Source: an uncultured Acidobacteriota bacterium (lineage in GTDB: Bacteria; Acidobacteriota; Blastocatellia; RBC074). From it: a stretch of DNA of 64,000 nucleotides. The stretch's first letter is position 1. Every line of letters begins with the position of its first letter. Below the pieces are notes generated by a model. It made no database searches, was not told where the DNA came from, and was given only the letters and a program-made list of their open reading frames with translations. Shown here in pieces: positions 1-14,298 of the stretch. Position numbers and translations under genes: made by a program. Location of the stretch: assembly GCA_963796275.1 (NCBI GenBank), contig CAWCKY010000006.1, positions 1,824,001-1,888,000 of the forward strand, written 5' to 3'.

Positions 1-428
1 TCACTGAACATGAACTCCATGAGCACGGTAAATACATGCCAGGTGAAATTGGAAATAGGCTGATTCGGAGGTGCAACGAGGATGTGCATCCCGTAATCTC
101 CCGGTTGAACATCGTAGAATTTACCGACTTGATCCTCCATCGCCCGGTAACATTCGAGGAGAAATACAGGCTTGCCATCGTAAATGCCCAGAAAAACCCG
201 CGAATGTTCAAGTATCTTTATATAGGCTGCTTCCACCTCTTCTATTGAGCTACCCTGCATTCCCCAGTATTTTGCATACTCCCTGGTCACCCAACCATGT
301 ATAAGCGGAATGTCATCCGGCATATGTAAATGGCGTAGGTGGAAATCTCCCAAGCCCGGGACATGTTTATTAAATATAAACTCGCTCAAACTCTCCGTGC
401 GCTCCGTGATTGTTTGCTTGTTTTCCAT
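1..428 (-). CDS. desC: Siderophore N-acyltransferase (AlcB/DesC/IucB-type GNAT), N-terminal part; may be fused to an IucA/IucC synthetase beyond the window edge
   Basis: Not in the ORF track because it is truncated. Manual translation from ATG at 428 gives MENKQTITERTESLSEFIFNKHVPGLGDFHLRHLHMPDDIPLIHGWVTREYAKYWGMQG...YDVQPGDYGMHILVAPP...FTWHVFTVLMEFMFS, open to the edge. W-V-x4-A-x-YW-G-M and GD-x-G-MH-x-L-x-AP are AlcB-type motifs. It follows desA/desB. Confidence 0.85.
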   Translation of the reverse strand, partial: MENKQTITERTESLSEFIFNKHVPGLGDFHLRHLHMPDDIPLIHGWVTREYAKYWGMQGSSIEEVEAAYIKILEHSRVFLGIYDGKPVFLLECYRAMEDQVGKFYDVQPGDYGMHILVAPPNQPISNFTWHVFTVLMEFMFS

Positions 429-1759
429 TCTTGTATGTTTTGATTGGGCTCAATACAATTGGCCTCCTCATCAAGAGCGGCAAACCGCTGGAAAGCAATC
501 TTTCCTTCGATCGGGTAATACTCTTTGCCGGTTATTTCTTTGATGATGTAAGAATTACGGTAACAGGCCATGCCTAAATCGGGTGTTACGAACCCATGAG
601 TGTGGAGCTCCGCATTCTGGACGTAGATTTCGGAGCCATTCTTGTCGATACTATAGTTCCGGTTGACATCAAATCGCCCTTTCTCGTCCCATTTAATACG
701 TGAGGAAATCCTGTCTATAAAAGCCGGAATCTGATAGGTATACCCTGTAGCTAATACCAGGCCTTCCGTGGAATGTTGGTAGTATTTACCCTCTTCTCGT
801 TGATGAAATTCCAATTTAAAAATGTTATCAGCTACATTGAAGTCCACATTCATCAGCTCGGAGCTGGTACGCAGAGTTATTTTGATGTCGTTAGTAAGGC
901 TTTTCGTGTAAAGCAGATCATATATGTCATTGATCAAATCAAAGTTGATCCCCTTATACAGCTGCTTATGCTCTTTCACCATTTGATCTCTTCTTTGAGA
1001 GGGCAGGGCATAGAAATAATCCACATACTCCGGCGAGGTCATCTCCAACGTCAGCTTGCTGTATTCCAAGGGGAAGAACCTGGGCGAGCGGGTGATCCAG
1101 TTAAGTTCGTAGCCGTACTTATCGATCTCTTGCAGGAGGTCGTAGTAGATCTCGGCTGCGCTTTGCCCGCTACCGAGCACCGTAATAGACTTTTTCCCTT
1201 GAAGTCTCTGCTTGTGATCAAGGTAAGAAGCCGAGTGGACAGGATCGCCGAGCAGGTCTTTGCAACAAGCCGGCACATAGGGAACGGTACCGGTTCCCAG
1301 CACAAGCTTCCTCCCTCTGTAGATGTTAGTCTTACCGCTCACAGCACATTTTGCGATAATGACATAACATTTCTGTTCTTCAGAGTATTCTATATGCTCG
1401 ACTTGCGTATTAAATCGAATGTTGGATAGCCTGGTTGCCGCCCACTGGCAGTACCTGTTGAATTCGTTTCGCAGTAAAAAAAAGTTCTGCCTGATGTAGA
1501 ACGAGTATATCCGCCCCTGTTCCTTGGTATAGTTTAAAAAACTGAACGGACTCGTCGGGTCAGCCAATGTCACCAGGTCCGCCATGAACGGTACCTGTAA
1601 CGTGCTATCCTGCAAAAGCATTCCGGGATGCCAATTGAAACTTTCTCTTTTATCCAGAAATAAGCCATTCAATTCATCGATAGGCTCGGAAAGGCATGCC
1701 AGGCCCAGGTTGAATGGCCCGACGCCTATGCCGACAAAGTCATATATTTCATCATTCAT
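386..1759 (-). CDS. desB: Flavin-dependent lysine/cadaverine N-hydroxylase (DesB/DfoA/AlcA/IucD family)
   Basis: GIGVGPFNLGLA FAD motif, FNWHPGMLL, VLGSGQSAAE NADPH motif, LATGY; lies between the decarboxylase and the acyltransferase. Confidence 0.93.
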   Translation of the reverse strand: MNDEIYDFVGIGVGPFNLGLACLSEPIDELNGLFLDKRESFNWHPGMLLQDSTLQVPFMADLVTLADPTSPFSFLNYTKEQGRIYSFYIRQNFFLLRNEFNRYCQWAATRLSNIRFNTQVEHIEYSEEQKCYVIIAKCAVSGKTNIYRGRKLVLGTGTVPYVPACCKDLLGDPVHSASYLDHKQRLQGKKSITVLGSGQSAAEIYYDLLQEIDKYGYELNWITRSPRFFPLEYSKLTLEMTSPEYVDYFYALPSQRRDQMVKEHKQLYKGINFDLINDIYDLLYTKSLTNDIKITLRTSSELMNVDFNVADNIFKLEFHQREEGKYYQHSTEGLVLATGYTYQIPAFIDRISSRIKWDEKGRFDVNRNYSIDKNGSEIYVQNAELHTHGFVTPDLGMACYRNSYIIKEITGKEYYPIEGKIAFQRFAALDEEANCIEPNQNIQEWKTSKQSRSARRV

Positions 1760-3314
1760 TGTTGTTCTCTATGCGGCTTGAAGACTGGTTGAAATATCGC
1801 TGTCCGTATTCTTTGATCAGGTTCAATATTTCTTGGATGTCATGAATCGTGGTCATGGGGTTGAGCAGTGTAAACTTCAAGTATTGTCTTTCGTTTACTT
1901 TGCTGCCTGCCACTACAGCTTCTCCAGATCTGAAAAGCGCTTTTCGGATGTATGCGTTGGCATCGTCGATTCCGTTCTCCGAATAAACTCCGGCAGGGCG
2001 ATAACGGAACACGAGTGTACTCAACTCAGGCTGGTGTAGCGCTTCGAAGGTCCCATCAGAAATGAGCAACGTATATGTCTCTTTCGCCAAATCAACAACC
2101 TTGTCGAAGGCTTTTCCGATGTTGTCGGCACCCATTGTTCTCAAGGTTAACCAGAGCTTTAGGGCATCGAATCTTCTGGTCGTCTGAATGCTCTTGTTGA
2201 CCAGGTTGGGAGTCCCTTCTTTAAGTTGACTTAACGGATTCAGGTAATCTGCATGATGCGTAAAAAATGACAGGTTCTTTTTATTCCTCACGAAGAAAGC
2301 GCCACAACTCACCGGCTGAAAGAATGATTTGTGATAATCCACGGTAACAGAATCTGAATACTGAATTCCGTCCAGCAGTTTTCTGTGTTTTTCGGAGATG
2401 AGCAGGCCGCAACCATATGCCGCATCCGTATGCATCCATAAACCGTAATTACGGCATATTTCTGCTATTTCCATTATGGGATCGATGCTCCCGAAATCGG
2501 TTGTTCCGACGGTAGCAACCACAGCCATAGGCATTAAGCCTTGAGCGAAGCAACTTCTGATCTCCTTTTCCAACTCGGAAACGTTCATTTTAAAATGGTC
2601 GTCGCAGGGCACAGGGATGACAGCCACATACCCCAGACCAAGTATTGCTGCCGCCTTCTGGATGCTGAAATGGCACGCCTGCGAGGCGAAAATCCTCAAT
2701 TTGTTATAGCCATTTGGTAATCCCTGAACCTGGATGCTGTGTCCCAATCTGCTTGAGCAGTACGCATCACGAGCCAGAAGCGTCGCCATCAGATTGGATT
2801 GCGTCCCTCCACTGGTAAAAATCCCGTCCGCCTTGGGGCCCAGGCCGATCTTCTCCGCCGTCCAATCGATGAGCTTCTGCTCTATCAATGTACCGCCGGC
2901 GCTCTGGTCCCACGTGTCCAATGAAGAGTTGATCGACGTTAGTATCAATTCGGCCAGGATAGCCGGCACGACTATCGGGCAGTTGAGATGGGCTACATAT
3001 TTGGGATGATGGAAGTAGATGGCATGATTCAGGTAAAGCTCCTCAATCTCTTCCAGAGCTTTCGAAAGACGATCAAATGACTGATCTAAATCTACCCCTT
3101 CGAATTTTATCGCCAACTCATGAGGCAGCACACCGCTAAATGGCTTATTCGCTCCCGATACCTTTTTTTGTACCAGGTCGATGCCTTTCAGAATTGTCTC
3201 TTTATATCTATTTAAACTTTGATGATTGAATAAGAAGGATTTATCGGAAAGTGGATCTATGGTTTTATCGAGCTGATTTTCGAGTTCCATCAAAGCGCCA
3301 GTGTTATTGGACAT
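1752..3314 (-). CDS. desA: PLP-dependent group II decarboxylase (lysine decarboxylase DesA/DfoJ-like)
   Basis: YVAHLNCP, DQSAGGT, FTSGGTQSN, HTDAAYG, DYHK (PLP lysine), SIQTTRRFDALK; overlaps desB by 8 bp. Confidence 0.92.
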   Translation of the reverse strand: MSNNTGALMELENQLDKTIDPLSDKSFLFNHQSLNRYKETILKGIDLVQKKVSGANKPFSGVLPHELAIKFEGVDLDQSFDRLSKALEEIEELYLNHAIYFHHPKYVAHLNCPIVVPAILAELILTSINSSLDTWDQSAGGTLIEQKLIDWTAEKIGLGPKADGIFTSGGTQSNLMATLLARDAYCSSRLGHSIQVQGLPNGYNKLRIFASQACHFSIQKAAAILGLGYVAVIPVPCDDHFKMNVSELEKEIRSCFAQGLMPMAVVATVGTTDFGSIDPIMEIAEICRNYGLWMHTDAAYGCGLLISEKHRKLLDGIQYSDSVTVDYHKSFFQPVSCGAFFVRNKKNLSFFTHHADYLNPLSQLKEGTPNLVNKSIQTTRRFDALKLWLTLRTMGADNIGKAFDKVVDLAKETYTLLISDGTFEALHQPELSTLVFRYRPAGVYSENGIDDANAYIRKALFRSGEAVVAGSKVNERQYLKFTLLNPMTTIHDIQEILNLIKEYGQRYFNQSSSRIENNNE

Positions 3315-3480
3315 ACCCTTCCCATTACGCAGTAGAGAAAAAGCACTGCGCCTGAATGTTTTATTGGTTTTATGGTTATCGCCTGCTTCCCGTGAAGGAA
3401 GCGATGTGATGCGGTTGTGTGGGGGAGTTACTCAATGCAACTTCTTGCTCTCAGTTCCGTTGCTTTTAGCACAAATTGAA

Positions 3481-3510
3481 ATCAATTATGAAATCCATTT
3501 TCATAATGAT
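3481..3510. promoter_or_regulatory. Fur-box-like operator upstream of the siderophore operon
   Basis: Perfect 9-5-9 inverted repeat ATTATGAAA-tccat-TTTCATAAT (3485-3507), about 170 bp upstream of desA. The minus strand reads TGAAAAT-G-GATTTCA, like a 7-1-7 Fur box. Confidence 0.7.
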
Positions 3511-3670
3511 CCGAAATGTACAGAATCAAGTTGGGAATGTCAAGAATATTTTTGCAAGTAATTACAGGAGGTTCGCTAATACCAGGGATTTTGGTTCATC
3601 TGAGCGGTCGAGCATTTCGTATACAAATCAGTCACTTGTGGCGCCGGCCTCCTTTCGCGTGCGTGGGCAT

Positions 3671-4687
3671 TCACTTGTATGCGACGCCGGCGCTGGCCGC
3701 CCCCGCCAAAGGAATCACTTCGGTTTCATGGAAGCCCACCTTCCGACACCAATCGAACAGATCTGCAGACGTAAAATCGAAAGCGTCTCCGAACTCGATC
3801 AGCATATTGAGCGACATCAGCAACCCAAAGGCGTTTTCTCGCCGAGCGTCGTCTATGAGATTCTCGACAACGACGAACGCGCCTCCGGGAGGTAAGGCAT
3901 CGTAGGCCGCCTGAATCAACTGCATCTTTTTGTCCAGGTTCCAGTCGTGGAGAATCAATCCCATGGTGATCACATCAACCCTGGGGAACGGATCGGAGAA
4001 GAAATTCAACGATTGTGCGGAAACGCGATCAGTGAGCCCGGCGGCAGATATCTTGCGTTCAGCGAACGCCGTGACAGCTGGCAAATCAGTGGTGAGGCAG
4101 CGGAGATGAGGATGCCGCCTGGCGACGATCATGGCTAATTGGCCGGAAGCACCTCCCACATCACAGAGCGATCGATAGCGAGAGAAATCAAATTTTTCCG
4201 CTAAGGCTTTGAAATTTGCCGTAGAGATTCCCGTCATGGCATCCATGACTTGCTCAAGGCGCTCGGGTTGACTATAGATTTCCTGGAACACCGGGCCGCC
4301 GATATGTTTGATCTCGTTCTGAGGTTGTCCTGTTCTAAGCCCTTCCGTAAGGTCGCCCCAGAAGCGGTAGAGCCGATCGTTCGCCATCTCGAGGATGCCG
4401 CCCACATATTCCGGATTGTTGCGATCCAGAAAGGCGGCGGTCTCCTGCGTATTACGATAGCGCGCGGACGGCCCGTCGCCATCCCGTTCCAGGAATTTCA
4501 GCGCAACGAGGGTGTCGAAAAAGTCCGGATTCGCGCGTGCGTTAAGTCCAAGTTGCTCCTGCAACTCTCGTCCGGTCATTGATTTGCTTCCCAGCTTCGT
4601 GAAGATGCGCAGCTCGACAGCTGAGAGAAGTGTTTTCGCAGGCCAGAACCCGAGTCCGACCTCGATAATTCGCGAAGGTGACAGCAT
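3671..4687 (-). CDS. SAM-dependent O-methyltransferase (Methyltransf_2 with dimerisation domain)
   Basis: N-terminal winged-helix dimerisation region, DVGGASG SAM motif, ILHDW catalytic motif; AAGGAG RBS. Confidence 0.88.
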   Translation of the reverse strand: MLSPSRIIEVGLGFWPAKTLLSAVELRIFTKLGSKSMTGRELQEQLGLNARANPDFFDTLVALKFLERDGDGPSARYRNTQETAAFLDRNNPEYVGGILEMANDRLYRFWGDLTEGLRTGQPQNEIKHIGGPVFQEIYSQPERLEQVMDAMTGISTANFKALAEKFDFSRYRSLCDVGGASGQLAMIVARRHPHLRCLTTDLPAVTAFAERKISAAGLTDRVSAQSLNFFSDPFPRVDVITMGLILHDWNLDKKMQLIQAAYDALPPGGAFVVVENLIDDARRENAFGLLMSLNMLIEFGDAFDFTSADLFDWCRKVGFHETEVIPLAGAASAGVAYK

Positions 4688-4955
4688 TGTAATTACTCCT
4701 TTGCTATTCTTATGCCTCGCATTGAGAATTCGTGCAGAACAGCACTGGATCCCCCATAGGCTTCGGAACTGTCGTGTCGCCGAAACTCGCGGCCTATGGC
4801 TTGTTTCGGACGATGGCCGTTATCACCTGGAGAAATTTTAACCGATGAAAAGCGTAAAACCAAGAATCACGTTCCGGGAGGGATACGATGCGTGGAAATG
4901 ATCGGGTCGAAATGGTTTGGACGGAAGGAATTCGATATCGAGAGGGATGGAGATA

Positions 4956-5762
4956 CTAAGCTCTCCGAGAAATTGACGACATCAATTTTTCTATGCGGCC
5001 GGCATCTGGTTCGTTGGCCCAATGTCCATCGACCTTAAAATACGATCCGATGATGAATCCGTCAGCCGCTTTATAAAATTCCGCGATGTTATCGGTATCT
5101 ATCCCCGAACCGAGCAGGACCGGCAGCTTGCAATGCGCTTTGATCTCTTGCACGTCCGCGAGCTTGGGGGGATCGCCGGTGACGTTTCCGGTTACGATCA
5201 CGGCGTCACCCCTCATGAACTCTACCGCCTCGGCTGTGGCGCTCAAGCTGATGTCGGCTGTGATCGCGTGTGACGAATGTTTCTTCTTGACGTCGGCCCA
5301 GACCTGTACGCGGTCGGCTCCAATCATCCTGCGATAGCGCAACACCCTGGCAGCCGACGACTCGATCAAACCTTCGTCCGCGACGTGGGCGAAGGCATAT
5401 CCTTCGGCTCGAATGAAATCGAGGCCGGCGGCATGCGCTACGGCAATTGCCTCAATGTTGGCTCCTGCGAGGATTTGAACGCCTGTCGGCAGACGGCTTT
5501 CCTGCCTGACCCGCCGGCCGATGACAGCCATGGCCGCGACGATCTCGGGACCGACTGATCCGCGCAGATAAGGAACGTCGGACATATTCTCTATGATCAA
5601 GCCATCTATCCGGCCGTCGCGATAAAGGGCAGCCTCGCGTTCGGCCTGAGCGATGATTTGATCGATCGATTGGCTATTGGCAGGTGTTCCCGGCAGAGCT
5701 CCGACGTGGATCATGCCGATGATCGGTTTCGGTTTGGAAAATAGTGAAGCGAGCATAAGCAA
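4956..5762 (-). CDS. BtpA/SgcQ family TIM-barrel protein
   Basis: IGMIHVGALPGTP, IENMSDVPY, ADVKKKHS, VTG-x-TG, LGSG, IIGS-x-K-x-DG motifs. Confidence 0.88.
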   Translation of the reverse strand: MLMLASLFSKPKPIIGMIHVGALPGTPANSQSIDQIIAQAEREAALYRDGRIDGLIIENMSDVPYLRGSVGPEIVAAMAVIGRRVRQESRLPTGVQILAGANIEAIAVAHAAGLDFIRAEGYAFAHVADEGLIESSAARVLRYRRMIGADRVQVWADVKKKHSSHAITADISLSATAEAVEFMRGDAVIVTGNVTGDPPKLADVQEIKAHCKLPVLLGSGIDTDNIAEFYKAADGFIIGSYFKVDGHWANEPDAGRIEKLMSSISRRA

Positions 5763-5923
5763 ACGATCGAACTATTGATTTCAGCATTCCTCAACAGCCT
5801 CCATCAACCTCGATGGAGAATAGTAGCACAGCACTGCTGAAGGAAATAAAACGTCATGAAGCTGACATCGCATTCTCCTGGCCTTCGCGCCAAATCGATT
5901 TCAAACACCGAAACGAAGTATCA

Positions 5924-6886
5924 TCAAGGATTCGCGAACTCAACAGACGTTACAGTGGCATCCGGCAAAGCCGATCGTGAGCAAAAATAGTCCAGCATAC
6001 TATATTGAACAAAACAGCTCTTCTCTTCCGACCGGCAGGTCATCGGATTTTCGATCTCTGAATCCTTGCGTGAAAAACATACCGTGTGAATGATTCCGTC
6101 CTCAGTAGATTCGAAGGTAACACGAGAGGAGTTGTGATCAACGGTCTCTTCTCGCACGAAGCGCAAACTGTCGATACTGATATCGCCGGATTCAAGTCGG
6201 ACGAAGAATTCGCCGGCCTGCGCATTCTTGGGGTAACAACCTCTCCCCCGGTAGTTGGCCAGAAATATCCGTCCCTCCTTGTACTCGCCCGCGACGCGCA
6301 CGGCATCGGCTTCCGTTACGCGCCCGTAAAACAACCCGTGGGGAAAACAGACTATATTGGCGGCAAATCTGTCGCCGCCGACGTGAGACGATGCCCAGAC
6401 GTTGTAACCGAATTTCTCCCGCATGAATTCATAGGTGCGAAGCCCATATTTCGCGCAACATTTGTCATGAGCTCCATCAGTGCAAACCAGGTAAAGGGGC
6501 GATCTCTCGCAAGCTCCTGCCGTATCGTTCCGCGCCCGTGCCAAATCGCAAATATCCAGATCGAGCAGTTCTTTGTAATCTTTGAGCTTGAAGTGCTGAA
6601 CGTACGGCGAGGATTCGCGCGCCACGACGATGAAAAAATTGATGGCGCCGGTTTGCGAATAGCTTTGACGAATCAATTGGAATCTTCCGCCATTGATGCG
6701 CTCCAGAGTCGAGCTCAGGCTCTCTTTCACCACATCAGGTATTCGATTATCGACCAGCGCTTTTTGTCCCCATGGTTCGGGGTGTTCGAGCAGTAACCAG
6801 ATGTTGCCTCTGCTTGCCGTCCCGAAAATAGGTTCGCAAGCGTTTCTTGATAAATCGGAACAATAATATACAGCTTTGTTATTCAT
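5924..6886 (-). CDS. Sucrase/ferredoxin-like protein (Suc_Fer-like, Apd1/Aim32-related thioredoxin-like 2Fe-2S protein)
   Basis: GTA...WLLLEHPEPWG, LVCTDGAHDKCCAKYG, SSHVGGDRFAAN, YRGR; ATGA overlap with the upstream JmjC gene (6883-6886). Confidence 0.85.
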   Translation of the reverse strand: MNNKAVYYCSDLSRNACEPIFGTASRGNIWLLLEHPEPWGQKALVDNRIPDVVKESLSSTLERINGGRFQLIRQSYSQTGAINFFIVVARESSPYVQHFKLKDYKELLDLDICDLARARNDTAGACERSPLYLVCTDGAHDKCCAKYGLRTYEFMREKFGYNVWASSHVGGDRFAANIVCFPHGLFYGRVTEADAVRVAGEYKEGRIFLANYRGRGCYPKNAQAGEFFVRLESGDISIDSLRFVREETVDHNSSRVTFESTEDGIIHTVCFSRKDSEIENPMTCRSEEKSCFVQYSMLDYFCSRSALPDATVTSVEFANP

Positions 6887-8121
6887 TGAACATGAAAAGT
6901 GTCGTCTTCGACGATCACCGCCAATCCTTTAACAACGAGTTCTCCTGCGAATTTGCGCACGGCCATGCGGTCGAGCCGCTTAGCCGACGCCTGGCATAGT
7001 TCCTGTATGGAATGGACCTGGCCGTCTTTCAGTATTTGCAGAATGCTTTCCACTGATCGGTCGAATTGCCACCGCCTTCCGTGCGATAGAAATTCCATAT
7101 GTGATTCATTCACCTGAATCTCCACCGGGCGCGGGGATGTTATTCGTATTCCAACCTTATCGCCGGGAGGCAATCCTTCATCCAGCGCGCTCCATGGGAG
7201 ATTGAAATGCGGACGAGGTGCCGCCATGGCATCCGAACGGTTGAAAAATCGTGTGAGCACATCGCGATCGCACAGGCGGAGAAAAGCTGAACGAATCTGG
7301 TCGGCATATGCCGCCTGTTCATCAGCGGTCGCATATCGCGGCAAATCCATTCGCACGAACGACTCCGCGCAGAGTTGTTCCGTCAGCCATTTAAGCAGAT
7401 CGGCGCCCGTGAGATTTGAAATCCCGATCGTGAGGTGCATGGTCGGTTCCGCCAGGGGAATTGCGACATGCCACCAGCCTCGCGGTATGTAGAGCATATC
7501 TCCGTCTTCAAGTATCCCTTCCCAGAGAGGATCATCGGCCGGAGGCTGACTCTCCACGAGGTCTTTTGCGAGGGGGTGGTGTCTGGTAGGACGATAAACT
7601 TTCCATTGCTTTCTGCCGGTTAATTGAATGATGAGAACTTCGTGATCGTCCCAGTGCAGGTCGAATCCCTGCGAACTCTTCCACCCGGCATAGAGGTTCA
7701 TCTGAATGGGAACGCGAAACGCCCATTCGAGAGATTCGGCGAGCCGCGTGAGCGGTCTATGCAACTCATCGACTCCATCGAGGACGAGCGTCGCTCCCTG
7801 ATAGAGATGCTCTGTTATAACAGTGGGAAGCAGGTGCGGGACGCGTGAATAGTTCTGCCGGCGGCTTACGGTATATTTTATATAACCTTCTGCAGGGATG
7901 ATCTTCCCATTCATCGCCAGCCGCAATCGCGGCGGTTCCAGCCGGTGCTGCATGAGGATTTCGTTCAGGCGCTGCCAGTTGAGAAGCCCGGTGAACTTTC
8001 CCTTCCATCCAGGAAGATGTTTCACCGACCTGCACCAATCATCCTTTAAAAATTTTTCAACCGCGTAAGGAGACAATATCTCGGGAAGCGTGGAGGGAAG
8101 TTGCGTCTTTTCCATACCCAT
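6883..8121 (-). CDS. JmjC/cupin_4 Fe(II)/2-oxoglutarate oxygenase (ROXA/YcfD/NO66-like) with C-terminal winged helix
   Basis: GATLVL, NLY, GFDLHWDDHEV (HxD), GRKQW, GDMLYIPRGWWH (distal His); C-terminal beta-beta/3-helix wHTH-like tail. Confidence 0.88.
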   Translation of the reverse strand: MGMEKTQLPSTLPEILSPYAVEKFLKDDWCRSVKHLPGWKGKFTGLLNWQRLNEILMQHRLEPPRLRLAMNGKIIPAEGYIKYTVSRRQNYSRVPHLLPTVITEHLYQGATLVLDGVDELHRPLTRLAESLEWAFRVPIQMNLYAGWKSSQGFDLHWDDHEVLIIQLTGRKQWKVYRPTRHHPLAKDLVESQPPADDPLWEGILEDGDMLYIPRGWWHVAIPLAEPTMHLTIGISNLTGADLLKWLTEQLCAESFVRMDLPRYATADEQAAYADQIRSAFLRLCDRDVLTRFFNRSDAMAAPRPHFNLPWSALDEGLPPGDKVGIRITSPRPVEIQVNESHMEFLSHGRRWQFDRSVESILQILKDGQVHSIQELCQASAKRLDRMAVRKFAGELVVKGLAVIVEDDTFHVQ

Positions 8122-8154
8122 CGAGATTTACATGTTCATCGCGAACCGAATCTC

Positions 8155-8222
8155 GTATCTATTCCTTCTCTTCCTATTATTTTATTTCTAGTATTTTTAT
8201 TATTTCTATTATTCCTATTCTA
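8155..8222. repeat. Degenerate ~9-bp AT-rich tandem repeat
   Basis: Minus strand reads AATAGGAAT AATAGAAAT AATAAAAAT ACTAGAAAT AAAATAATAGGAAG. Confidence 0.6.
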
Positions 8223-8348
8223 AAGATAGCGACTACCGCCGAACTTCCGAACCTTCATCGGCGATCGACGATAGTCGTTGGCGAAATGTTATTTCATCTT
8301 CCCCGGTTTCTATTTCGATGCCGACGACTGGGAAAAATATTTACTCAC

Positions 8349-8513
8349 CTATTCCTGGTCGTAATGTTTATCGCTCCCATCGTCATCTGTTTCCTCGGAA
8401 CGCGTTTCCATATACCAGGGACGAATCTCCTCCAAATTTTCCGATTTGATGATAAAGCCCGACTCTCGGACGTTGGTTGTCTCTTTTACTGACTGTTGTT
8501 TCGATTGCTCCAT
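8349..8513 (-). CDS. Unannotated 54-aa acidic peptide, candidate RiPP precursor
   Basis: GGAGGA-acctgta-ATG at 8513, TAG at 8351-8349; MEQSKQQSVKETTNVRESGFIIKSENLEEIRPWYMETRSEETDDDGSDKHYDQE. Shorter than any ORF in the track (all 60 aa or more). An in-frame ATG at 8528 would add MEEPV. Confidence 0.65.
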   Translation of the reverse strand: MEQSKQQSVKETTNVRESGFIIKSENLEEIRPWYMETRSEETDDDGSDKHYDQE

Positions 8514-8820
8514 TACAGGTTCCTCCATGGAATCAGGTATCGCCTCGATACCGAGGCCTACACAAGGTAGGGAATATGGGTAAACATCTTCCCCGAACAG
8601 GTTTATCGAAAGTTAATAGTTGTCGATTATCGATCTTGAAAATCGATTTCAGGATTATGAGTTTTCTTGGAGGCGGAGTCAAGTAGGTCTTCAAAATTTG
8701 CCATTGTTTGAAGACAAATAGGGGTCTTTTCCGCTGTAGGCGTAACTTTGGCGAGTGAGAACTTGAATGTAGAGGCTCCTACTTTTTTGTGAGTCATGGA
8801 GCGCAACAAGCGGGCCAGTG

Positions 8821-9108
8821 TCAGTGAGTACCATTGGGTCTGGAATCATCCTGGAGTGAATCGAGGGCCTCAGAGAGCGAACGTCCCTGACTGTCGCGTC
8901 CGTTCGGGAAATTTCGTCGAACCCATTCGTCGGGCGTAATTCCTTGTTGGACTGCTACGTTCGTCAAGGCGGAAGATCTCTTTACTTCCTTATCATGGTT
9001 TTCTTTGAGATAACCTCCGAATACCGTATGCGTCGGCGGAGATGTCGGGTCGGGGATACTGCTATCGATTGAACCGATAAGGTCGGAGGATGTGCACGTA
9101 TCGCTCAC
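8821..9108 (-). CDS. Hypothetical small protein or gene fragment
   Basis: 95-aa ORF with protein-like composition, GTG start and no clear RBS. Confidence 0.3.
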   Translation of the reverse strand: MSDTCTSSDLIGSIDSSIPDPTSPPTHTVFGGYLKENHDKEVKRSSALTNVAVQQGITPDEWVRRNFPNGRDSQGRSLSEALDSLQDDSRPNGTH

Positions 9109-9397
9109 CAGAGAAATTCATTTTCTCCGGAGATGATGTGAGTGATCGAGTATTTGAAGACGTTGCTCCACTCTTACAGAGATCAAATCCAGTTGGTTCT
9201 CTAAAAAGAGATCTAAGGAAGTATTCGGGAGCCGAGAGCTACTGATTGTGTGCACCGATTTCGGTGTGCCCTCTACCACCGACGAAGCAATAATTTGCTA
9301 ATTTGCATATCGTGCCAGCCAAGATTGAGAACCCATAGCCACTATCTACCTTACAGCCAACGACCACTGCATCACCCGCCTTGCTCCGACGATATAT

Positions 9398-12300
9398 TCA
9401 AAAAGTAAACCTCACCCTAAACTGCACCTGCCTTGGAACAGTCGTCGTACTCGTCGTCCTCCCAAAGCTGGTCGCCGTAATACTGACAGGTGTTACCCCA
9501 AACGTTCCCCCGGTCGGCACTTCGAAGATCGGGTGATTGAAGGCATTGACCATCTCCGCTCTGATCTCCATTCTTACCCTCTCTTTAACTAACGGCATTG
9601 CTTTAGCCAACGACAGGTCGGCAGTAACAAATTTCGGGCTATAAAGATAAACAAACGCTCCGAACTGCCCAGCACTCTCGGCCGGTGAGAGAAAACTGCT
9701 ATCAGCCTGTCCATTGTCACCCGTCAGCTTCGGATCAATGAAATAGACATCCGGCCCTGACTTGAACACACCGACCATTTTCTGTAGATCAGATGCCGTC
9801 AACCCATTCAGTACCACGCCCGAGTCCGATTGGTTGACCGTCATGCGGCCGCTGCTCAGTTTGAACGGTAGGCCGGATTGCATGCGGAAGATCGTCCCGA
9901 CCGTCCAACCGCCGAGCACGCCATTGAGAACAGGGTTTTTCATCGAGAACTTGCGGCTTTGCCCCACCGGCAGATCATAAGTGCCGTAAGCCTGGAATAC
10001 GTGCCTGATGTCGAAGGTCGAAGGCCCATAGTCTAATCGCCGATTCCGAAGCGTGGCGAAGTTACCGATGTTATCCACGTTCTTGTTATAGCGGTCATTC
10101 ATCGCGTGGGCATATGTATAGTTCATGTTCATCGTCAGCCCGTGCGTAATCCGCTGGCGAAACTCGATCTGAAGCCCATTGTAGTTGGACGAGGAGTTAT
10201 CGCTCAGAACATTGGCCGTTCCCAGGAACGGGTTGAGCCGGAAAAGGTTGATCGGATACTGACCGGGAGTATTGAACCCGAGATTGGCGCAGGGACCGAA
10301 CCCATTGCCAACCAGTTTGCAGAAATAGGTCGAGGTCGAGGCGAAGGTGTTTGCTAACGCTCCTGCCTGCCCAGTCCGAAGCAGATTGATAAATGTACCG
10401 TTTGCAAAACCCAGGTTCGGGGCCACGCCCTCGAAGGCCGCAGCGAAGATCGGCGTCGCCGCTTGACCCGGATATCCATTATTGGCGAAGCCGGTTATTC
10501 CATTCGCTGTATTGATCGCCAGATTACTTTGGGCATCCTGGAACTGCTTAAGGAAACCATTCTCGAATATATTTACTTCGTTGATATTGTACGTACGCCA
10601 CAATCTCACGCCGCGGTTGCCCGCGTATCGAACCTCAAGCACGCTCCCTTGCCCGAATTCGCGTTGAATACTGGCCGACCACGTTTGCACGTAGGGCGCC
10701 CTGATCTTCGGATCGATTGTGGAGATGGTAGTGTTAGTAGTGAAGGCGAAATTCGACAGCGCCAGCGGAGAACCGAAACTGCCGGGGGATAGATTGAATA
10801 AGGGCAGCGGATCGCCCAGACTTAATGTACCAGCGGCAAAGTCGACGCCGGGAACCAGATTGCCGGTCTGTCGCAGCCCCGGATTATTGCCCGCGTTGTT
10901 GGTGAAGTTGAGCATGCCTTCGGAGTAATAGCTGATCGAATAACCGCCCCTGAAGACCGTCTTGCGGTCGCCGAACAACCTTCCCCTCAGACCATTCTGA
11001 AAGCTCGGGTTCCACGCTATTCCGAGATGCGGTCCGGGATTGATGAAATCACGGCTGTACGCATGCGAACGCTGCTGAATGTTGGGATTGGCGATCCCAG
11101 GCAACGAACCCGGATTGAAGAGATTGGGCGAGTTGTCGTCACCGCCCAATGCAGAGCCCGAAGGCCCGAAGAGGTCCAGCAATGTCGGACTGGTATAGAT
11201 GTCGTTGGTGTTAAAGCTATCACCCTGGAAATCCCAGCGCAGGCCATAATTGAGCGTCAGCGAGCGATTGAAGCGCCACGAGTCCTGAAAATAGAGCCCG
11301 AAGGATGTCTGTCTCTCGCGTCTGGTGAAAGGTTGATCGACGGCGTACTGCTTGGACTTCTCATCCACGTTGACGGATTTGGCCACGTTCGAGATGCGCC
11401 CCGTCAGCAGCGCATAGAGGGCCAGGGCGTCGTTGCGCGCATCGGGGGGAATATTGGGAAGCGCGCTGTTATCGAAGATATCGTCGACCGGATCGCCGCC
11501 AATGACTCCGAAAGTGTAGCGCGGGATGCCGGCATCGCCGAGAGTACCGACATTTACGCGGGAGCGGATGTAATTGCCGCCGAAACTGAACGAGTGGTTA
11601 CCGCGCTGGTAATAGAAATTGTTCGCCAGGTTATAGACCGGATTGTTCCGCGGCTGGAACGTGGTCTCAAAGCCCGCGTTATTCATCGCTTCCAGTCCGC
11701 TCGCCAGCGTCAGCGGGAAATTCAACAGACTGGGTTGGTAGAGGCTCCGGTCATATCCGATATTGAATATCTCCTGGGTACCCTGGATGCCGAAATTGAA
11801 CTCGTTGATCATGTTCGGTCGAAGAGTCCAGGTGGCGCTGGCGTTGGTGATGTAGGGGTTGGAGATTTGCCCAACCGATTGCTCCGTGGAGAAAGTGCCC
11901 GGCAGGACCGTTCCCCGAAACCCACGGTCGGTCACGTTCCGGTTATAAAAGTCGGAGACGCTCAGGCGTAACTTCTCCGTCACCTGATAATCGATGCGCG
12001 CCACCGGGAATTGATTGGTGACGGGAGACGGCGCCACCCACCGCACTCTGTTCCGAAACAAGTCCAACGGCGAGACCGCCCCGGCCGAAGTCGATGATTG
12101 AATCTTCTGCAGCTGTGCGGCAATGATCGGATTGACCGTGCCCGGGAACCCCCTCTCCTGCGCCTTATCGAGCAGGTTTTCCGTATGCTGGATGCCATCG
12201 CTTCCGACATAGGTGAAGAAGCCCATCTGGGCAGCGGGGGTCAATACACGAGCTTCGAATTCTTGCGACTGAGGGGTCTTCACATGGGCATAACTCACAA

Positions 12301-13210
12301 AGAAGAAAAGTTTGTCCCTGATGATCGGCCCGCCGATCGCACCGCCCTGGTCGTTGCGAATGAAGACGGGCCGGCGGATATTGCGGGCATTGTTGAACCA
12401 GTTATTCGCCTTGAGCGCCGAGTTTTCATGCTGCCAGAAGACTTCGCCGTGAAAGGCGTTGGTTCCAGACTTGATGACGTACTGGATCTGTATGGCACCC
12501 TGTCCCGTGCTGTTGGCGCCGAGATTCGAGGTTGCAACAGTGACCTCCTGCACGGCCTCCAGCCTGGGTGTGACGAAGGCAAAGAAGCTTGTGCCGCCGC
12601 TCTTGAACCGCTGGGAGTTGTTAGCGATGCCGTTGAGGGTGATATTGATCGCGCCCCCGGGTAAGCCGTTAAAGGTGCTGTCGCGTGAGTTGGTTCCTTG
12701 CTGGGCGCCGGCCTGCAGCAGCGCGAAGGGCAGGGTATCGCGGCCAGTCAGTGGCAGGTCCTGCAGATACTTCTGATCCACCGTGTCCGAGATGGTGGTC
12801 GTCGTCGTATGCAATACCTGGGCTCCGCCCTGGACCTCTACGACCTGGTTGACGGCCCCGACTTTCAGGGTAACCGTCTGATTGCTGGTACGCGCCGCAT
12901 AGACGATCAGGCCTTTGTAAGAAGTAACTTCAAAACCCTGCTTCGTGACGGTCAGGGTATAACTCCCCGGTAAGACGGTTGGAAAGACAAAACCGCCTTC
13001 AGTGCTAGCGGTCGCAGTCTGGATGGCCTTGGTCTCCTCGTTTTGTAACTGCACCTCGGCTCCGGGGATAACTGCGCCCGACTGATCCTGCACAGTACCG
13101 ACTATCTGCCCGGTCGTAGCAATCTGGGCAACCGTCGATGAAACAGCGCCCAGAGCGAATATCAGGGCGATAGCCGGCATTACAACTGCGATCGGTCTTG
13201 TTCTCGTCAT
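9398..13210 (-). CDS. TonB-dependent receptor, Oar-like, with N-terminal carboxypeptidase-regulatory-like domain
   Basis: Signal peptide, GTVQDQSGAVIPGAEV, LPLTGRD, KSGTNAFHG, LNYGLRW, C-terminal PRQVQFRVRFTF. Start moved to 13210 because of the GGAGGA RBS. Confidence 0.92.
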   Translation of the reverse strand: MTRTRPIAVVMPAIALIFALGAVSSTVAQIATTGQIVGTVQDQSGAVIPGAEVQLQNEETKAIQTATASTEGGFVFPTVLPGSYTLTVTKQGFEVTSYKGLIVYAARTSNQTVTLKVGAVNQVVEVQGGAQVLHTTTTTISDTVDQKYLQDLPLTGRDTLPFALLQAGAQQGTNSRDSTFNGLPGGAINITLNGIANNSQRFKSGGTSFFAFVTPRLEAVQEVTVATSNLGANSTGQGAIQIQYVIKSGTNAFHGEVFWQHENSALKANNWFNNARNIRRPVFIRNDQGGAIGGPIIRDKLFFFVSYAHVKTPQSQEFEARVLTPAAQMGFFTYVGSDGIQHTENLLDKAQERGFPGTVNPIIAAQLQKIQSSTSAGAVSPLDLFRNRVRWVAPSPVTNQFPVARIDYQVTEKLRLSVSDFYNRNVTDRGFRGTVLPGTFSTEQSVGQISNPYITNASATWTLRPNMINEFNFGIQGTQEIFNIGYDRSLYQPSLLNFPLTLASGLEAMNNAGFETTFQPRNNPVYNLANNFYYQRGNHSFSFGGNYIRSRVNVGTLGDAGIPRYTFGVIGGDPVDDIFDNSALPNIPPDARNDALALYALLTGRISNVAKSVNVDEKSKQYAVDQPFTRRERQTSFGLYFQDSWRFNRSLTLNYGLRWDFQGDSFNTNDIYTSPTLLDLFGPSGSALGGDDNSPNLFNPGSLPGIANPNIQQRSHAYSRDFINPGPHLGIAWNPSFQNGLRGRLFGDRKTVFRGGYSISYYSEGMLNFTNNAGNNPGLRQTGNLVPGVDFAAGTLSLGDPLPLFNLSPGSFGSPLALSNFAFTTNTTISTIDPKIRAPYVQTWSASIQREFGQGSVLEVRYAGNRGVRLWRTYNINEVNIFENGFLKQFQDAQSNLAINTANGITGFANNGYPGQAATPIFAAAFEGVAPNLGFANGTFINLLRTGQAGALANTFASTSTYFCKLVGNGFGPCANLGFNTPGQYPINLFRLNPFLGTANVLSDNSSSNYNGLQIEFRQRITHGLTMNMNYTYAHAMNDRYNKNVDNIGNFATLRNRRLDYGPSTFDIRHVFQAYGTYDLPVGQSRKFSMKNPVLNGVLGGWTVGTIFRMQSGLPFKLSSGRMTVNQSDSGVVLNGLTASDLQKMVGVFKSGPDVYFIDPKLTGDNGQADSSFLSPAESAGQFGAFVYLYSPKFVTADLSLAKAMPLVKERVRMEIRAEMVNAFNHPIFEVPTGGTFGVTPVSITATSFGRTTSTTTVPRQVQFRVRFTF

Positions 13211-13224
13211 GCGAGTCCTCCACG

Positions 13225-14298
13225 CTACTCTTTCGATTCGTCCAATAATGCAGCGAGATGCTGCTTCCACAAGGCAGGCATGGTATGCGTGCCGTGTCCG
13301 CGCGTCTGGTCGCTGATCGGTATCAGGATGAAGCGCCCGCGTTTTACCCGCTTGATCTCCCGTTCTGCGATGCCCAGCTCGGGCGGGTTGACCTGGTCAT
13401 CGGCTGAGTTAATGGCCACCAGCGGAGCCTTGATGCTCTCGAGCTTCGGCGCCGGGTTGTAATCGCGCGAGGCATCGAACTGGTAGATCATATCGTTGGC
13501 ATCCCTGTTGTTGAGCGAAGCGCGCACCCGGCTGTCGAACTGCTGGTCGGCCTCATCGCGCGTTGGCGCCTGCTTCTGCATTTGCAGCGGGCTGCTGGAC
13601 ATAAATGTCATGGCGTAAATGGCAGAGGTCAAACCGCGCACTGGCTGCGTCTTGTATTCTCCTTTATTCCACTCCGGATCGTTTTTGATTGAGTCCATGA
13701 CCATCCGGCGAATCATCCGGTTGCGGCCCGCGATCTGGACTGGGAGGCTGGCAAGCGGCATCAGCGCATCCATAAAGTCGGGATACTTCTCGCCCCAGAC
13801 CCAGGTATGCATCCCGCCCATCGAGGTCCCCATAACCAGCCGCAGATGTTTCACGCCCAGGTGTTCGGTCAGCAGCCGGTAATGCGCCGTGACCATGTCG
13901 TTGTAGTTATAGCGCGGAAAGCGCATCCGCATTCCATCGCTCGGCTTCGATGACTGGCCGTGCCCGATGCCGTCCGGCAGAATGATGTAATGCTTCGTCG
14001 CATCCAACAGTTGTCCGGGGCCGTAGAGCACGTCGGCAAATTGCCGTGAGAGGAATTGCGCGCCCGAGCCGGTTGTGCCGTGCAGAATCAGCACAGCGTT
14101 GCGCACCTCGCCCGCCGCGTCTTTGCTCGGGCTCCCGATCGTGCGGTAGTGCAGTTTCATCTCGGGCAGCGTCTCACCGCTTTCAAAACGGAAGTCCCGG
14201 ATCGTAAAGTCGCCTTCGACGGGAACGGGCGATTGTTGCGCCATCGCGGACATTCGGATGCAGACCAGAACGACCGCCAGTAGAATTGCTTTCTTCAT
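13225..14298 (-). CDS. Exported alpha/beta hydrolase, homoserine O-acetyltransferase (MetX)-like
   Basis: Signal peptide MKKAILLAVVLV...AMA, FESGETL, HGTTGSG, GTSMGG nucleophile elbow, SADD, GHGTH. Confidence 0.85.
   Translation of the reverse strand: MKKAILLAVVLVCIRMSAMAQQSPVPVEGDFTIRDFRFESGETLPEMKLHYRTIGSPSKDAAGEVRNAVLILHGTTGSGAQFLSRQFADVLYGPGQLLDATKHYIILPDGIGHGQSSKPSDGMRMRFPRYNYNDMVTAHYRLLTEHLGVKHLRLVMGTSMGGMHTWVWGEKYPDFMDALMPLASLPVQIAGRNRMIRRMVMDSIKNDPEWNKGEYKTQPVRGLTSAIYAMTFMSSSPLQMQKQAPTRDEADQQFDSRVRASLNNRDANDMIYQFDASRDYNPAPKLESIKAPLVAINSADDQVNPPELGIAEREIKRVKRGRFILIPISDQTRGHGTHTMPALWKQHLAALLDESKE

Follow-up and report, generated by a model that had tools for sequence, protein, structure and literature searches.

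A short acidic peptide, a JmjC oxygenase and a Suc_Fer-like protein are encoded side by side on one strand of the window, as the whole 64,000-nucleotide stretch of acidobacterial DNA analysed here is called, and the best explanation, which we favour at slightly better than even, is that the peptide serves as the substrate of the JmjC/Suc_Fer pair in a RiPP-like or small-protein modification cassette. As shown in Table 1, the peptide gene stands first, and four things were established directly, namely that it is a real gene, that the three genes are linked, that the catalytic residues of the oxygenase are intact and that the peptides are built of a leader plus repeats.

Table 1. Positions of the cassette genes, their motifs and the neighbouring genes in the window.
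Feature	Position	Strand	Basis or remark
Siderophore-type genes (Lys/Orn N-monooxygenase, PLP decarboxylase, GNAT)	3-3314
Suc_Fer-like thioredoxin-like-ferredoxin protein, 320 aa	5924..6886	(-)	Pfam, model, adjacency
H168-X3-D172 of Suc_Fer-like protein	6371-6385	(-)	invariant in 28 sequences
C135-X8-C144 of Suc_Fer-like protein	6455-6484	(-)	invariant in 28 sequences
ROX-type JmjC Fe(II)/2-oxoglutarate oxygenase, 412 aa	6883..8121	(-)	Pfam JmjC_2, fold, invariant catalytic residues
RRE-like winged-helix end of JmjC	6910..7152	(-)	AF2 secondary structure
H218 of JmjC	7468-7470	(-)	invariant in 36 sequences
K171 of JmjC	7609-7611	(-)	2OG-binding Lys, invariant in 36 sequences
H156-x-D158 of JmjC	7648-7656	(-)	invariant in 36 sequences
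Predicted hairpin, 13-bp stem, possible attenuator	8230..8277	(-)	peptide-JmjC spacer (227 bp); lead only
Candidate precursor/substrate peptide gene, 54 aa + stop	8349..8513	(-)	translation, pN/pS, 17 database relatives, same-place copies
Single DxDGxD unit (DDDGSD, residues 43-48)	8370..8387	(-)	repeated unit of main family
Conserved N-terminal recognition-like motif ESGFIIKSENLEE, residues 17-29	8427..8465	(-)	alignments, hhalign; counterpart of main-family SGLLLSVEPL
Promoter-like site TTGACT-17-CATAAT	8654..8682	(-)	~140 bp upstream of peptide start; 10/12 matches; lead only
TonB-type outer-membrane barrel	9398-13270

The small ORF translates exactly as an earlier note on this DNA had written it, its GGAGGA ribosome-binding site does end 7 nt ahead of the ATG at 8513, and the distance to the co-oriented JmjC gene, given there as about 230 bp, is 227 bp from the stop. 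An alternative in-frame ATG at 8528 would yield a peptide of 59 aa; 20/20 aligned relatives share the start at 8513. Between the window and the same-genus locus L002, 52 aligned codons differ at 14, 8 and 32 sites in codon positions 1, 2 and 3, respectively (pN 0.21; pS 0.92, which is saturated), and the DNA flanking the ORF does not align. Related to the peptide are 17 database clusters of 69–95% identity, every one annotated 'hypothetical protein', and same-place copies of the gene are present in L002/L006 and L087, beside the two closest JmjC homologues; peptide, JmjC and Suc_Fer are each single-copy in their own genome. The codon pattern and the conserved copies indicate a real gene under purifying selection. 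That the ORF goes untranslated, or serves only as a regulatory upstream ORF or an attenuator, is scarcely credible: its shortness and the predicted hairpin in the spacer behind it would suit such a role, but the constraint on the ORF is strong at the amino-acid level, a good Shine-Dalgarno precedes it, and its family spans 54 to 154 aa with motifs kept across classes of Acidobacteriota, a kind of conservation that, to our knowledge, attenuator peptides do not have. The fold of 8360–8115 has a minimum free energy of -60.2 kcal/mol (z -2.3; 1/200 shuffles equally good), and the hairpin sequence is not conserved with L002. Promoter-like sites in the region number 2 against 4.6 expected from shuffles, and the promoter and terminator scans of the region gave no excess over the shuffle expectation. 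Among the sequencing runs listed for this DNA there is no RNA run; six DNA runs share 5–6% of the sequence words.

Databases offer no name for the peptides. With the threshold relaxed to E ≤ 1, Pfam still has no family for any of 9 peptides; NCBIfam has none for three peptides, the JmjC or the Suc_Fer protein, and the ESM Atlas gave matches only to unnamed Acidobacteriota clusters. A Pfam match of one peptide to an ASFV protein (E 0.4) was dismissed as meaningless, and a sub-threshold PK-repZ match in the Rfam scan of 5000–10000 (22.4 bits against 44) was rejected as chance.

Meanwhile, a peptide with a conserved N-terminal motif precedes nearly every JmjC homologue of at least about 43% identity. 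The motif reads SGLLLSVEPL in the main family, where 32 leaders all keep the S, G and L of SGLLL, and ESGFIIKSENL in the window peptide; the two types of leader align in hhalign over 34 columns (probability 60%, E 8.6e-5). Behind the motif, the family carries one to eight or more DxDGxD units, in which DGTD occurs 169 times and DGSD 97 times among 76 peptides; the DGxD count per core runs from 0 to 8 with a median of 4, and cores differ in length as well as in repeat number. Asp makes up 31.5% of the composition after residue 45, and the acidic tails contain few basic residues (K 2.4%, R 1.1%, H 0.1%). The earlier note had described a bipartite peptide with an Asp/Glu/His-rich core; the split into leader and core is real, but in an alignment of 20 sequences it is D43, D45, G46 and D48 that are invariant, the tail His and Lys vary, and the conserved unit is DxDGxD. 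Tandem second precursors also exist, some of which keep the leader but differ in the core (DPIVE repeats, L069 and L079). A leader profile from distant loci picks the 54-aa ORF as its top match across six frames of the 64-kb window, a match that is weak alone (E 0.041), and a scan of the loci for the 'IRPW' motif finds it solely in the closest relative. From these alignments the window peptide is best read as a short form of a larger family, and the family displays, at the sequence level, the conserved leader and variable core that are a RiPP trait.

The scan of the DNA upstream of JmjC homologues that the earlier note had proposed was carried out, and a co-oriented small ORF with the conserved motif and an acidic tail was found at essentially every locus with enough DNA. 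Of 191 relatives, 80 genome loci were kept, and 74/80 have a leader-profile match (E ≤ 0.01) directly upstream of the JmjC gene on the same strand, a count that is partly by construction because the profile was derived from 70 of the same loci. Among the remaining 6, three have less than 310 bp of upstream DNA and three (L006, L046 and L063) show the peptide by eye; matches at this threshold lie nowhere else in the genome loci or the window. As an independent set for the peptide–JmjC linkage, 80 metagenome loci gave an upstream match in 63 and none elsewhere. Another 11 have less than 330 bp upstream, inspection by eye reveals the peptide in 4 of the 6 misses, and within this set the peptide is absent upstream of JmjC only in L164 and L166, whose JmjC identity is 39–40%. 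On the downstream side, tblastn places the Suc_Fer-like gene next to JmjC in 78/80 genome loci, the other 2 having no room for it. The ATGA overlap by which the earlier note had coupled the JmjC and Suc_Fer-like genes is confirmed. Antisense ORFs longer than JmjC occur in 8 loci and one longer than Suc_Fer in 1.

In a family sample of 151 genomes, 42 carry JmjC, and all 42 of these are among the 43 that carry this Suc_Fer subfamily. The cassette was found in 1/40 relatives, in none of a sample of 400 further genomes of the phylum to which the window belongs and in 42/151 in another family. The loci come from related metagenome-assembled genomes and are not independent samples. By adjacency and co-occurrence, peptide, JmjC and Suc_Fer-like protein thus appear as one self-contained, co-inherited cassette whose three-gene linkage holds, with the Suc_Fer-like protein as the apparent obligate partner of JmjC. 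The set is conserved in soil Acidobacteriota and undescribed: a literature search of freely accessible main texts found no description of a peptide–JmjC–Suc_Fer cassette.

The JmjC protein matches Pfam JmjC_2 (PF08007) with 94.1 bits against a cutoff of 22 (E 6e-27), and in sequence it matches MINA53 (5.8e-17), NO66 (2.7e-15) and YcfD (3.3e-7), with the iron triad and the 2OG Lys aligned to the MINA53 segments HYDD, GEKHW and PRGTIH. Its AF2 model (pLDDT 91.3) has the complete ROX architecture of JmjC barrel, dimerisation helices and C-terminal winged helix, and Foldseek aligns it to NO66, MINA53 and YcfD over 411–458 columns (NO66: E 2.1e-22 over 446 columns). By residues and predicted fold, it is a complete ROX-type Fe/2OG hydroxylase. 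The winged-helix end comprises strands 324–327, 341–346 and 349–354 and helices 355–364, 372–378 and 385–397 in the AF2 model, for which the secondary-structure order of RREs given in PMC12710340 was the reference. The same domain is present in NO66, MINA53 and YcfD, and because it is a standard part of ROX enzymes, it is alone no evidence of leader recognition. The ROX enzymes (E. coli YcfD/RoxA, human NO66, MINA53) share Pfam JmjC_2, the three-part architecture, the HxD...H triad and the 2OG Lys with the JmjC protein, but sequence identity is only about 18–20%, and the JmjC gene, unlike those of ROX, always lies between an acidic repeat peptide gene and a Suc_Fer-like gene and is patchily distributed. 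Hydroxylation by ROX enzymes falls on Arg or His residues in ribosomal proteins, and in the papers examined acidic-peptide or Suc_Fer-like partners are not described for them.

The Suc_Fer-like protein belongs to Pfam PF06999 (69.6 bits against a cutoff of 34.9, E 5e-19), and a PDB sequence search with it gave nothing at E ≤ 1. Roughly 100 residues of its model (pLDDT 82.4) superpose on the Aquifex [2Fe-2S] ferredoxin 1m2d_A with a TMt of 0.73 over 103 columns, although E is only 0.037. Residues C9, C135, C143, C144, H168, D172, C217 and C284 are invariant in 28 sequences. It has been reported that the cluster ligands of Aim32 are CX8C...HX3H (PMC8482512). The HX3H of this ligand set is absent from the 28 Suc_Fer-like sequences, which have HX3D instead, and [2Fe-2S] binding is therefore only putative. 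Yeast Apd1 and Aim32 share the Suc_Fer-like family and the CX8C motif with the protein described here, which differs from them in HX3D, in the extra invariant Cys 9, 217 and 284, in an additional C-terminal beta domain and in being coupled to an oxygenase gene.

The siderophore-type genes and the TonB-type barrel that the earlier note had placed within a few kb of the cassette are present as described. It had further suggested a ribosomal β-hydroxylated metallophore or signal as a possible product. In the most specific version of this idea, the cassette belongs to the neighbouring siderophore pathway and yields a ribosomal β-hydroxy-Asp/His siderophore taken up via the adjacent TonB-dependent receptor. 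Despite the position of the window's cassette between the barrel and the siderophore genes, and despite a TonB-type barrel ahead of the cassette in 6 other loci, this is very improbable, and the proposed link does not survive comparison of loci. Neither element neighbours the cassette in the same-genus genome (L006), where the cassette is flanked by a radical SAM gene and, at its opposite end, by genes for zf-HC2, a P-type ATPase and GntR, or in L087, where a Ser/Thr kinase gene is upstream; siderophore, BtpA and methyltransferase genes do not cluster with it at any of the 80 other loci, and the tail His is not conserved. The proximity seen in the window looks coincidental, and because the siderophore genes and receptor are not conserved beside the cassette, this metallophore argument falls away. 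Besides the three cassette genes, no neighbour family occurs in more than 27/81 loci, the 27-locus family being a hybrid histidine kinase. In agreement with the earlier note, no protease or exporter family recurs within about 6 kb of the cassette in the 81 loci; such an absence is unusual for a secreted RiPP.

Metal-related neighbours do recur in separate clades, with a ChaN-type gene in 6 loci, the TonB-type barrel in 6 and a DUF5666/CusF-like gene in 5, and a heavy-metal P-type ATPase lies beside the L006 cassette. Together with the siderophore genes of the window and the polyanionic composition, they could point to an unmodified small acidic Ca/metal-binding protein, merely co-transcribed with a JmjC–Suc_Fer pair that shares an oxygen, iron or redox-response role. 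However, a simple metal-binding tail needs no conserved N-terminal docking-like motif, the same-strand adjacency is strict, and peptide type is in step with the JmjC phylogeny, with 3/3 of the window type in one clade (support 99, FastTree only), which makes this explanation improbable. Predicted binding also speaks weakly against it: the three-chain fold of JmjC, Suc_Fer and peptide scored 0.56, 0.58 and 0.56, and the best of 3 controls, one of which had JmjC replaced, scored 0.00. The partner pLDDT was 44–47 and the runs agreed in at least 30% of contacts, with no contacts returned. In calibration, the mark was reached by 58/80 solved complexes and 2/110 mismatched pairs; of those that passed, just 7 of the 80 solved complexes but both mismatches scored no higher than 0.60, so that 0.56 lies in a band more often wrong than right when no strong prior is at hand, and the fold used custom alignments and three chains, unlike the calibration. 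The model thus lends weak support to peptide binding. Adjacency, clade tracking, the docking-like motif and the fold together nevertheless indicate a physical relationship between peptide and JmjC. The charge and pI of JmjC and Suc_Fer were not discriminating.

We infer binding, reaction, modified residue, the role of the iron-sulfur-type protein and product function along the following lines, with the peptide as the probable substrate. The peptide would undergo RiPP-like oxidation guided by its leader, the Fe(II)/2OG centre acting on DxDGxD, of which the window form has one unit and the main form up to eight or more. Ribosomal oxygenases of the ROX fold hydroxylate at C-3, and because the JmjC protein has their fold, the likeliest chemistry would be C-3 (β) hydroxylation of Asp; this specific reaction is proposed tentatively. 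The residues targeted by those ROX and PF08007 enzymes that have been characterised are Arg, His or Orn, which speaks against Asp as the target. The Suc_Fer-like protein, with its CX8C...HX3D variant of a [2Fe-2S] site, could be an obligate redox or accessory subunit that either keeps the oxygenase iron reduced or performs a second redox step. 2OG oxygenases require no external electron donor, and this role is therefore ad hoc. The outcome would be a hydroxylated, strongly polyanionic peptide, which may remain full-length because a dedicated protease or exporter is lacking; Fe3+/Ca2+ binding is a plausible role for it, though a metal-binding function is on balance rather unlikely.

Alternatively, the peptide may be an accessory partner (an acidic inhibitor, a substrate mimic or an Fe2+/Ca2+ buffer or donor), with JmjC hydroxylating another, for example ribosomal, protein. 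This is unlikely but has real arguments, since JmjC shares its fold and its catalytic residues with ribosomal oxygenases, the known members target basic residues, of which the acidic tails have few, a conserved protease or exporter is lacking, and DxDGxD may resemble metal-binding loops. The patchy distribution, however, misfits a housekeeping ribosomal role, and a conserved leader, variable repeats and tandem precursors with different cores typify substrates. Moreover, the nearest outgroup JmjC, that of L166, has a different small ORF on one flank and ThiF and YcaO genes on the other, in a YcaO RiPP cluster.

The substrate reading has parallels in PhaI (phaeornamide), BipG (biphenomycin) and CzlI (curacozole), which are JmjC-type Fe/2OG enzymes (PhaI in PF08007) that hydroxylate RiPP precursors in dependence on flanking or leader sequence; like them, the JmjC protein would act on a ribosomally made precursor. 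Those enzymes are accessory in larger clusters with lanthionine synthetases, MNIO or radical SAM enzymes, YcaO, proteases and transporters, and their substrates are Orn or Phe, whereas here the precursor is an Asp-rich repeat and JmjC is the sole recognisable modifying enzyme, paired with a ferredoxin-like protein. CinX (cinnamycin) and the alpha-KG HExxH hydroxylases perform the reaction proposed here, Asp β-hydroxylation in a ribosomal peptide, but they belong to unrelated enzyme families, and their target is one position of a cross-linked peptide rather than a series of DxDGxD units.

If the proposed modification takes place, the cassette would be an undescribed, widespread peptide-modification system (42/151 sampled genomes of one abundant soil family), the ROX fold would extend from ribosomal proteins to dedicated peptide substrates, and the poorly understood bacterial Suc_Fer-like proteins would be matched with a definite partner. 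The cassette could also turn out to be a gene-encoded source of β-hydroxy-Asp, an iron-binding group that otherwise comes from non-ribosomal machinery. The boldest version, in which JmjC and its iron-sulfur partner produce a leader-guided poly-(β-hydroxy-aspartate) class of RiPP acting as an Fe(III)/Ca(II) chelator, a 'ribosomal siderophore' of soil Acidobacteriota with the window gene as its minimal one-unit form, is decidedly unlikely. Unlike the cassette described here, methanobactins and bufferins depend on MNIO (DUF692) enzymes and Cys-derived ligands. They are RiPP metallophores and a precedent for metal-binding ribosomal peptides (PMC11626156); metal binding by the acidic repeat peptides is hypothetical.

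The reading frame proposed in the earlier note is exactly reproduced: its translation is identical, and the sequence GGAGGA ends 7 nt upstream of the start codon (ATG) at 8513. The JmjC gene and the Suc_Fer-like gene do overlap by ATGA. Comparison of related loci shows that this small ORF is a true gene. A genome of the same genus, in which JmjC has 64% identity, carries an ORF of 52 aa at the corresponding position and in matching orientation; the DNA of the two loci can be aligned over the ORF only, and the differences at codon positions 1, 2 and 3 are 14, 8 and 32 over 52 codons, with pN of 0.21 and a saturated pS of 0.92. A third copy of this short type, which has one DxDGxD unit, is found on metagenome contig L087 (JmjC at 65% identity), and a protein collection contains 17 clusters at 69–95% identity to the small ORF, each named "hypothetical protein". 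N14, R16, E17, S24, E25, L27, P32, W33, Y34, E36, S39, D43, D45, G46, and D48 are invariant in a 20-sequence alignment of the window-type peptides; K49 and H50 are not. In L087, the spacer between peptide and JmjC (~1470–1700) contains a short tandem DNA repeat that reads as three-residue repeats in all three frames over ~60 bases.

Genes of the window around the peptide gene and the siderophore-type genes
Feature	Position	Strand	Remark
UvrA-like ABC ATPase, 1000 aa	15549-18551	minus	UvrA_inter and UvrA_DNA-bind domains; unrelated to the cassette
TonB-type outer-membrane barrel, 1290 aa	13270-9398	minus	first of the gene series
Small ORF (peptide gene)	8513-8349	minus	five residues longer if read from the in-frame ATG at 8528
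Spacer between small ORF and JmjC gene		minus	227 bp
JmjC_2 protein, 412 aa	8121-6883	minus	
Suc_Fer-like protein, 320 aa	6886-5924	minus	own ATG overlaps the JmjC stop
BtpA/SgcQ-family gene	4956-5762	minus	follows the Suc_Fer-like gene
O-methyltransferase (Methyltransf_2)	3671-4687	minus	
PLP-dependent decarboxylase	1752-3314	minus	end overlaps the next gene
Lys/Orn N-monooxygenase	386-1759	minus	ends overlap both neighbours
GNAT (Acetyltransf_8)	3-428	minus	runs off the window

Scanning genomes with the JmjC sequence as query gave 191 relatives, and the best 80 loci (44–64% identity) were kept, from Pyrinomonadaceae, Blastocatellia, Bryobacteraceae, Solibacteraceae, and Acidobacteriaceae. 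The "IRPW" motif of the window peptide occurs in the upstream DNA of the closest relative only among these 80 loci; listing all upstream ORFs reveals a co-oriented ORF of 70–154 aa ending just before the JmjC start at nearly every locus. The main type of these peptides has a conserved start (consensus MSEQ...EE.E...SGLLLSVEPL) followed by Asp-rich repeats. Past residue 45, the composition of 76 peptides is 31.5% D, 16.8% G, 14.0% S, 11.0% A, and 10.8% T, with no Cys and almost no aromatic residues, and the 76 peptides contain DGTD 169 times and DGSD 97 times. It is moderately well supported by sequence comparison that the window ORF is a short form of this larger family, because Bryobacterales-type peptides form a bridge between the two types (SGLLLGSDPLDEIR compared with SGFIIKSENLEEIR), profiles of 20 window-type peptides and of 32 main-type leaders align with each other over 34 columns spanning the motif (probability 60%, E 8.6e-5), and the invariant D43-x-D45-G46-x-D48 of the window type is the repeat unit of the main-type peptides; much of the weight of this homology comes from the common position and common partners. 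Two tandem precursors are present in L065, L069, L079, L084, L142, and L151, and the second one in L069 (5593–5853) and L079 (5463–5714) has the same SGLLLSV-type leader with a DPIVE(D/E) repeat in place of DGTD units. The P-type peptides carry clade-specific C-terminal motifs after the repeats, such as ...IKIDSKDA, ...DPLGIA..., and ...ESESGLGGENPLG..., and a Lys or Arg near the C-terminus is frequent in them and not universal.

The upstream scan of JmjC homologues that the earlier note had proposed found a small ORF of this family before the enzyme gene at nearly every locus. With a profile built from 70 leaders, and a match defined as E ≤ 0.01 directly upstream on the same strand, 74/80 genome loci were positive, partly by construction since the profile derives from 70 of the same loci; the other six comprise three with less than 310 bp of upstream DNA and three with a peptide recognizable by eye (L006, L046, and L063). 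Six-frame searches of the 80 loci and of the window gave no match at E ≤ 0.01 at any other position. An independent test is provided by 80 metagenome loci, none of which was used in profile building: 63 have the upstream match, none has a match away from this position, 11 have less than 330 bp of upstream DNA, and four of the six misses have a peptide by eye (L087, L109, L120, and L150), so that a peptide is missing only at L164 and L166, whose enzymes are the most distant of the set (39–40% identity). In a FastTree phylogeny of 148 JmjC sequences, midpoint-rooted and made of rows from related genomes, the three loci with window-type peptides group together in a single clade (support 99); Bryobacterales-type leaders are concentrated in one clade, and those of the SGLLLSVEPL type in a different one.

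By tblastn, 78/80 genome loci have the Suc_Fer-like gene immediately after JmjC, with a median inferred gap of 7 bp; the other two loci have less than 300 bp of room. Among the metagenome loci, it is adjacent in 51, has no room in 22, is divergently upstream in one (L153), and is absent despite room in six, namely L101 and L141 (each with ~400 bp only), L148, L162, L164, and L166, the last four of which have distant enzymes. The cassette JmjC is patchily distributed in the samples searched: it occurs in 1/40 nearest relatives, in none of 400 further genomes drawn from the window's phylum (E ≤ 1e-60), and in 42 of 151 genomes sampled from the family of locus L079 (E ≤ 1e-60). The Suc_Fer subfamily (E ≤ 1e-30) occurs in 43 of these 151 genomes, including all 42 with JmjC, always at adjacent coordinates, and in the one additional genome the gene stands at a contig start. 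All 28 Suc_Fer-like sequences compared share C9, C135, C143, C144, H168, D172, C217, and C284, giving the motifs CX8C and HX3D; the former is common to Aim32, described with CX8C...HX3H, whereas the second motif differs. No PDB structure matches the Suc_Fer-like model (pLDDT 82.4) at E ≤ 0.001; ~100 residues of the model superpose on the thioredoxin-like [2Fe-2S] ferredoxin of Aquifex (TMt 0.70–0.73, E ~0.04).

The closest solved relatives of the JmjC protein by sequence are MINA53 (5.8e-17), NO66 (2.7e-15), YxbC (2.2e-8), and YcfD (3.3e-7). H156, D158, H218, and K171 do not vary among 36 family members, and K171 is aligned to the Lys of the GEKHW segment in MINA53. A model from AlphaFold2 (pLDDT 91.3, pTM 0.88) aligns with NO66, MINA53, and YcfD structures over 411–458 columns (best E 2.1e-22), so that the whole ribosomal-oxygenase architecture is present. 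In the model, the last domain (residues 324–404) has three strands followed by three helices, the order set for RiPP recognition elements in PMC12710340, which also mentions that some JmjC (PF08007) proteins carry RRE-like domains and that bacterial homologues are found in RiPP-like settings. The most distant homologue, the outgroup enzyme of L166 (40% identity), belongs to another RiPP-type cluster (2446–6833), with the order 62-aa ORF, JmjC_2, winged-helix protein of the ThiF family, and YcaO, and without Suc_Fer; its 62-aa ORF has a leader-like acidic N-terminus different from the cassette leaders and a Cys/Ser/Thr-containing tail.

These features fit a self-contained cassette with the peptide as putative substrate, which would bind to the enzyme through its conserved N-terminal motif and be oxidized at its DxDGxD units. 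A predicted three-chain fold of JmjC, Suc_Fer, and peptide gave weak support for peptide binding; the scores were 0.56, 0.58, and 0.56, compared with 0.00 for the best of three controls, in one of which JmjC was replaced; in calibration the mark was reached by 58/80 solved complexes and 2/110 mismatched pairs, with a score of 0.60 or under it was reached by only 7/80 solved complexes and by both mismatches, and the present fold differs from the calibration in its three chains and custom alignments per chain. As the scored partner, the peptide had a pLDDT of 44–47, and at least 30% of contacts are common to the runs. The peptide could also be an accessory partner of the enzymes. For the peptide as substrate, the favoured reaction is C-3 hydroxylation of Asp, because the fold family hydroxylates at C-3 (PMC9994133), only Asp and Gly are invariant in the core, and Asp beta-hydroxylation has a RiPP precedent described for CinX. 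The known members of the fold, as described, act on Arg, His, or Orn, a clear weakness of this assignment. No protease or transporter family recurs beside the cassette in 81 loci, and the absence of a protease or exporter is a clear weakness of the substrate reading; the peptide could instead be an unmodified metal-binding protein. A further weakness concerns the iron–sulfur-type partner, as 2OG oxygenases need no electron donor.

Pfam and NCBIfam have no model covering the peptides, ESM Atlas returned unnamed Acidobacteriota clusters only, and a description of such a cassette was not found in full-text literature, a search with subscription journals and supplements outside its scope. Since JmjC enzymes that tailor RiPPs are already known, the cassette is rated not as wholly new but as a new precursor family and enzyme pairing, with putative chemistry.

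ORF clustering of the 81 loci shows that only the JmjC and Suc_Fer families are present throughout; the next family is a hybrid histidine kinase (27/81), and the remaining neighbours are clade-specific: CheR (9 loci), CheB (6), TonB-type barrel (6), ChaN-type haem-binding protein (6), and DUF5666/CusF-like protein (5). The link to siderophore genes and a receptor suggested in the earlier note is not supported, as the same-genus cassette has a radical SAM gene at one flank and genes for zf-HC2, a heavy-metal P-type ATPase, and GntR at the opposite flank, and the upstream gene in L087 is a Ser/Thr kinase; the siderophore genes and receptor thus lie outside the conserved unit. The genes at 3–3314 of the window are of hydroxamate or NRPS-independent siderophore type and are not conserved beside the cassette elsewhere; the BtpA/SgcQ and O-methyltransferase genes, which lie between them and the cassette, are absent next to it in L006 (same genus) and L087. 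Some neighbours hint at a possible metal theme: TonB-type barrels with DUF5666/CusF-like proteins and ChaN-type proteins occur in separate clades, and the P-type ATPase gene (L006 4894–7488) adjoins the same-genus cassette. In one Pyrinomonadaceae clade (L009, L015, L022, L023, L031, L032, and others), hybrid histidine kinase, CheR, and CheB genes precede the cassette, and a radical SAM/DUF3641 gene or a trehalase gene lies 3' of it.
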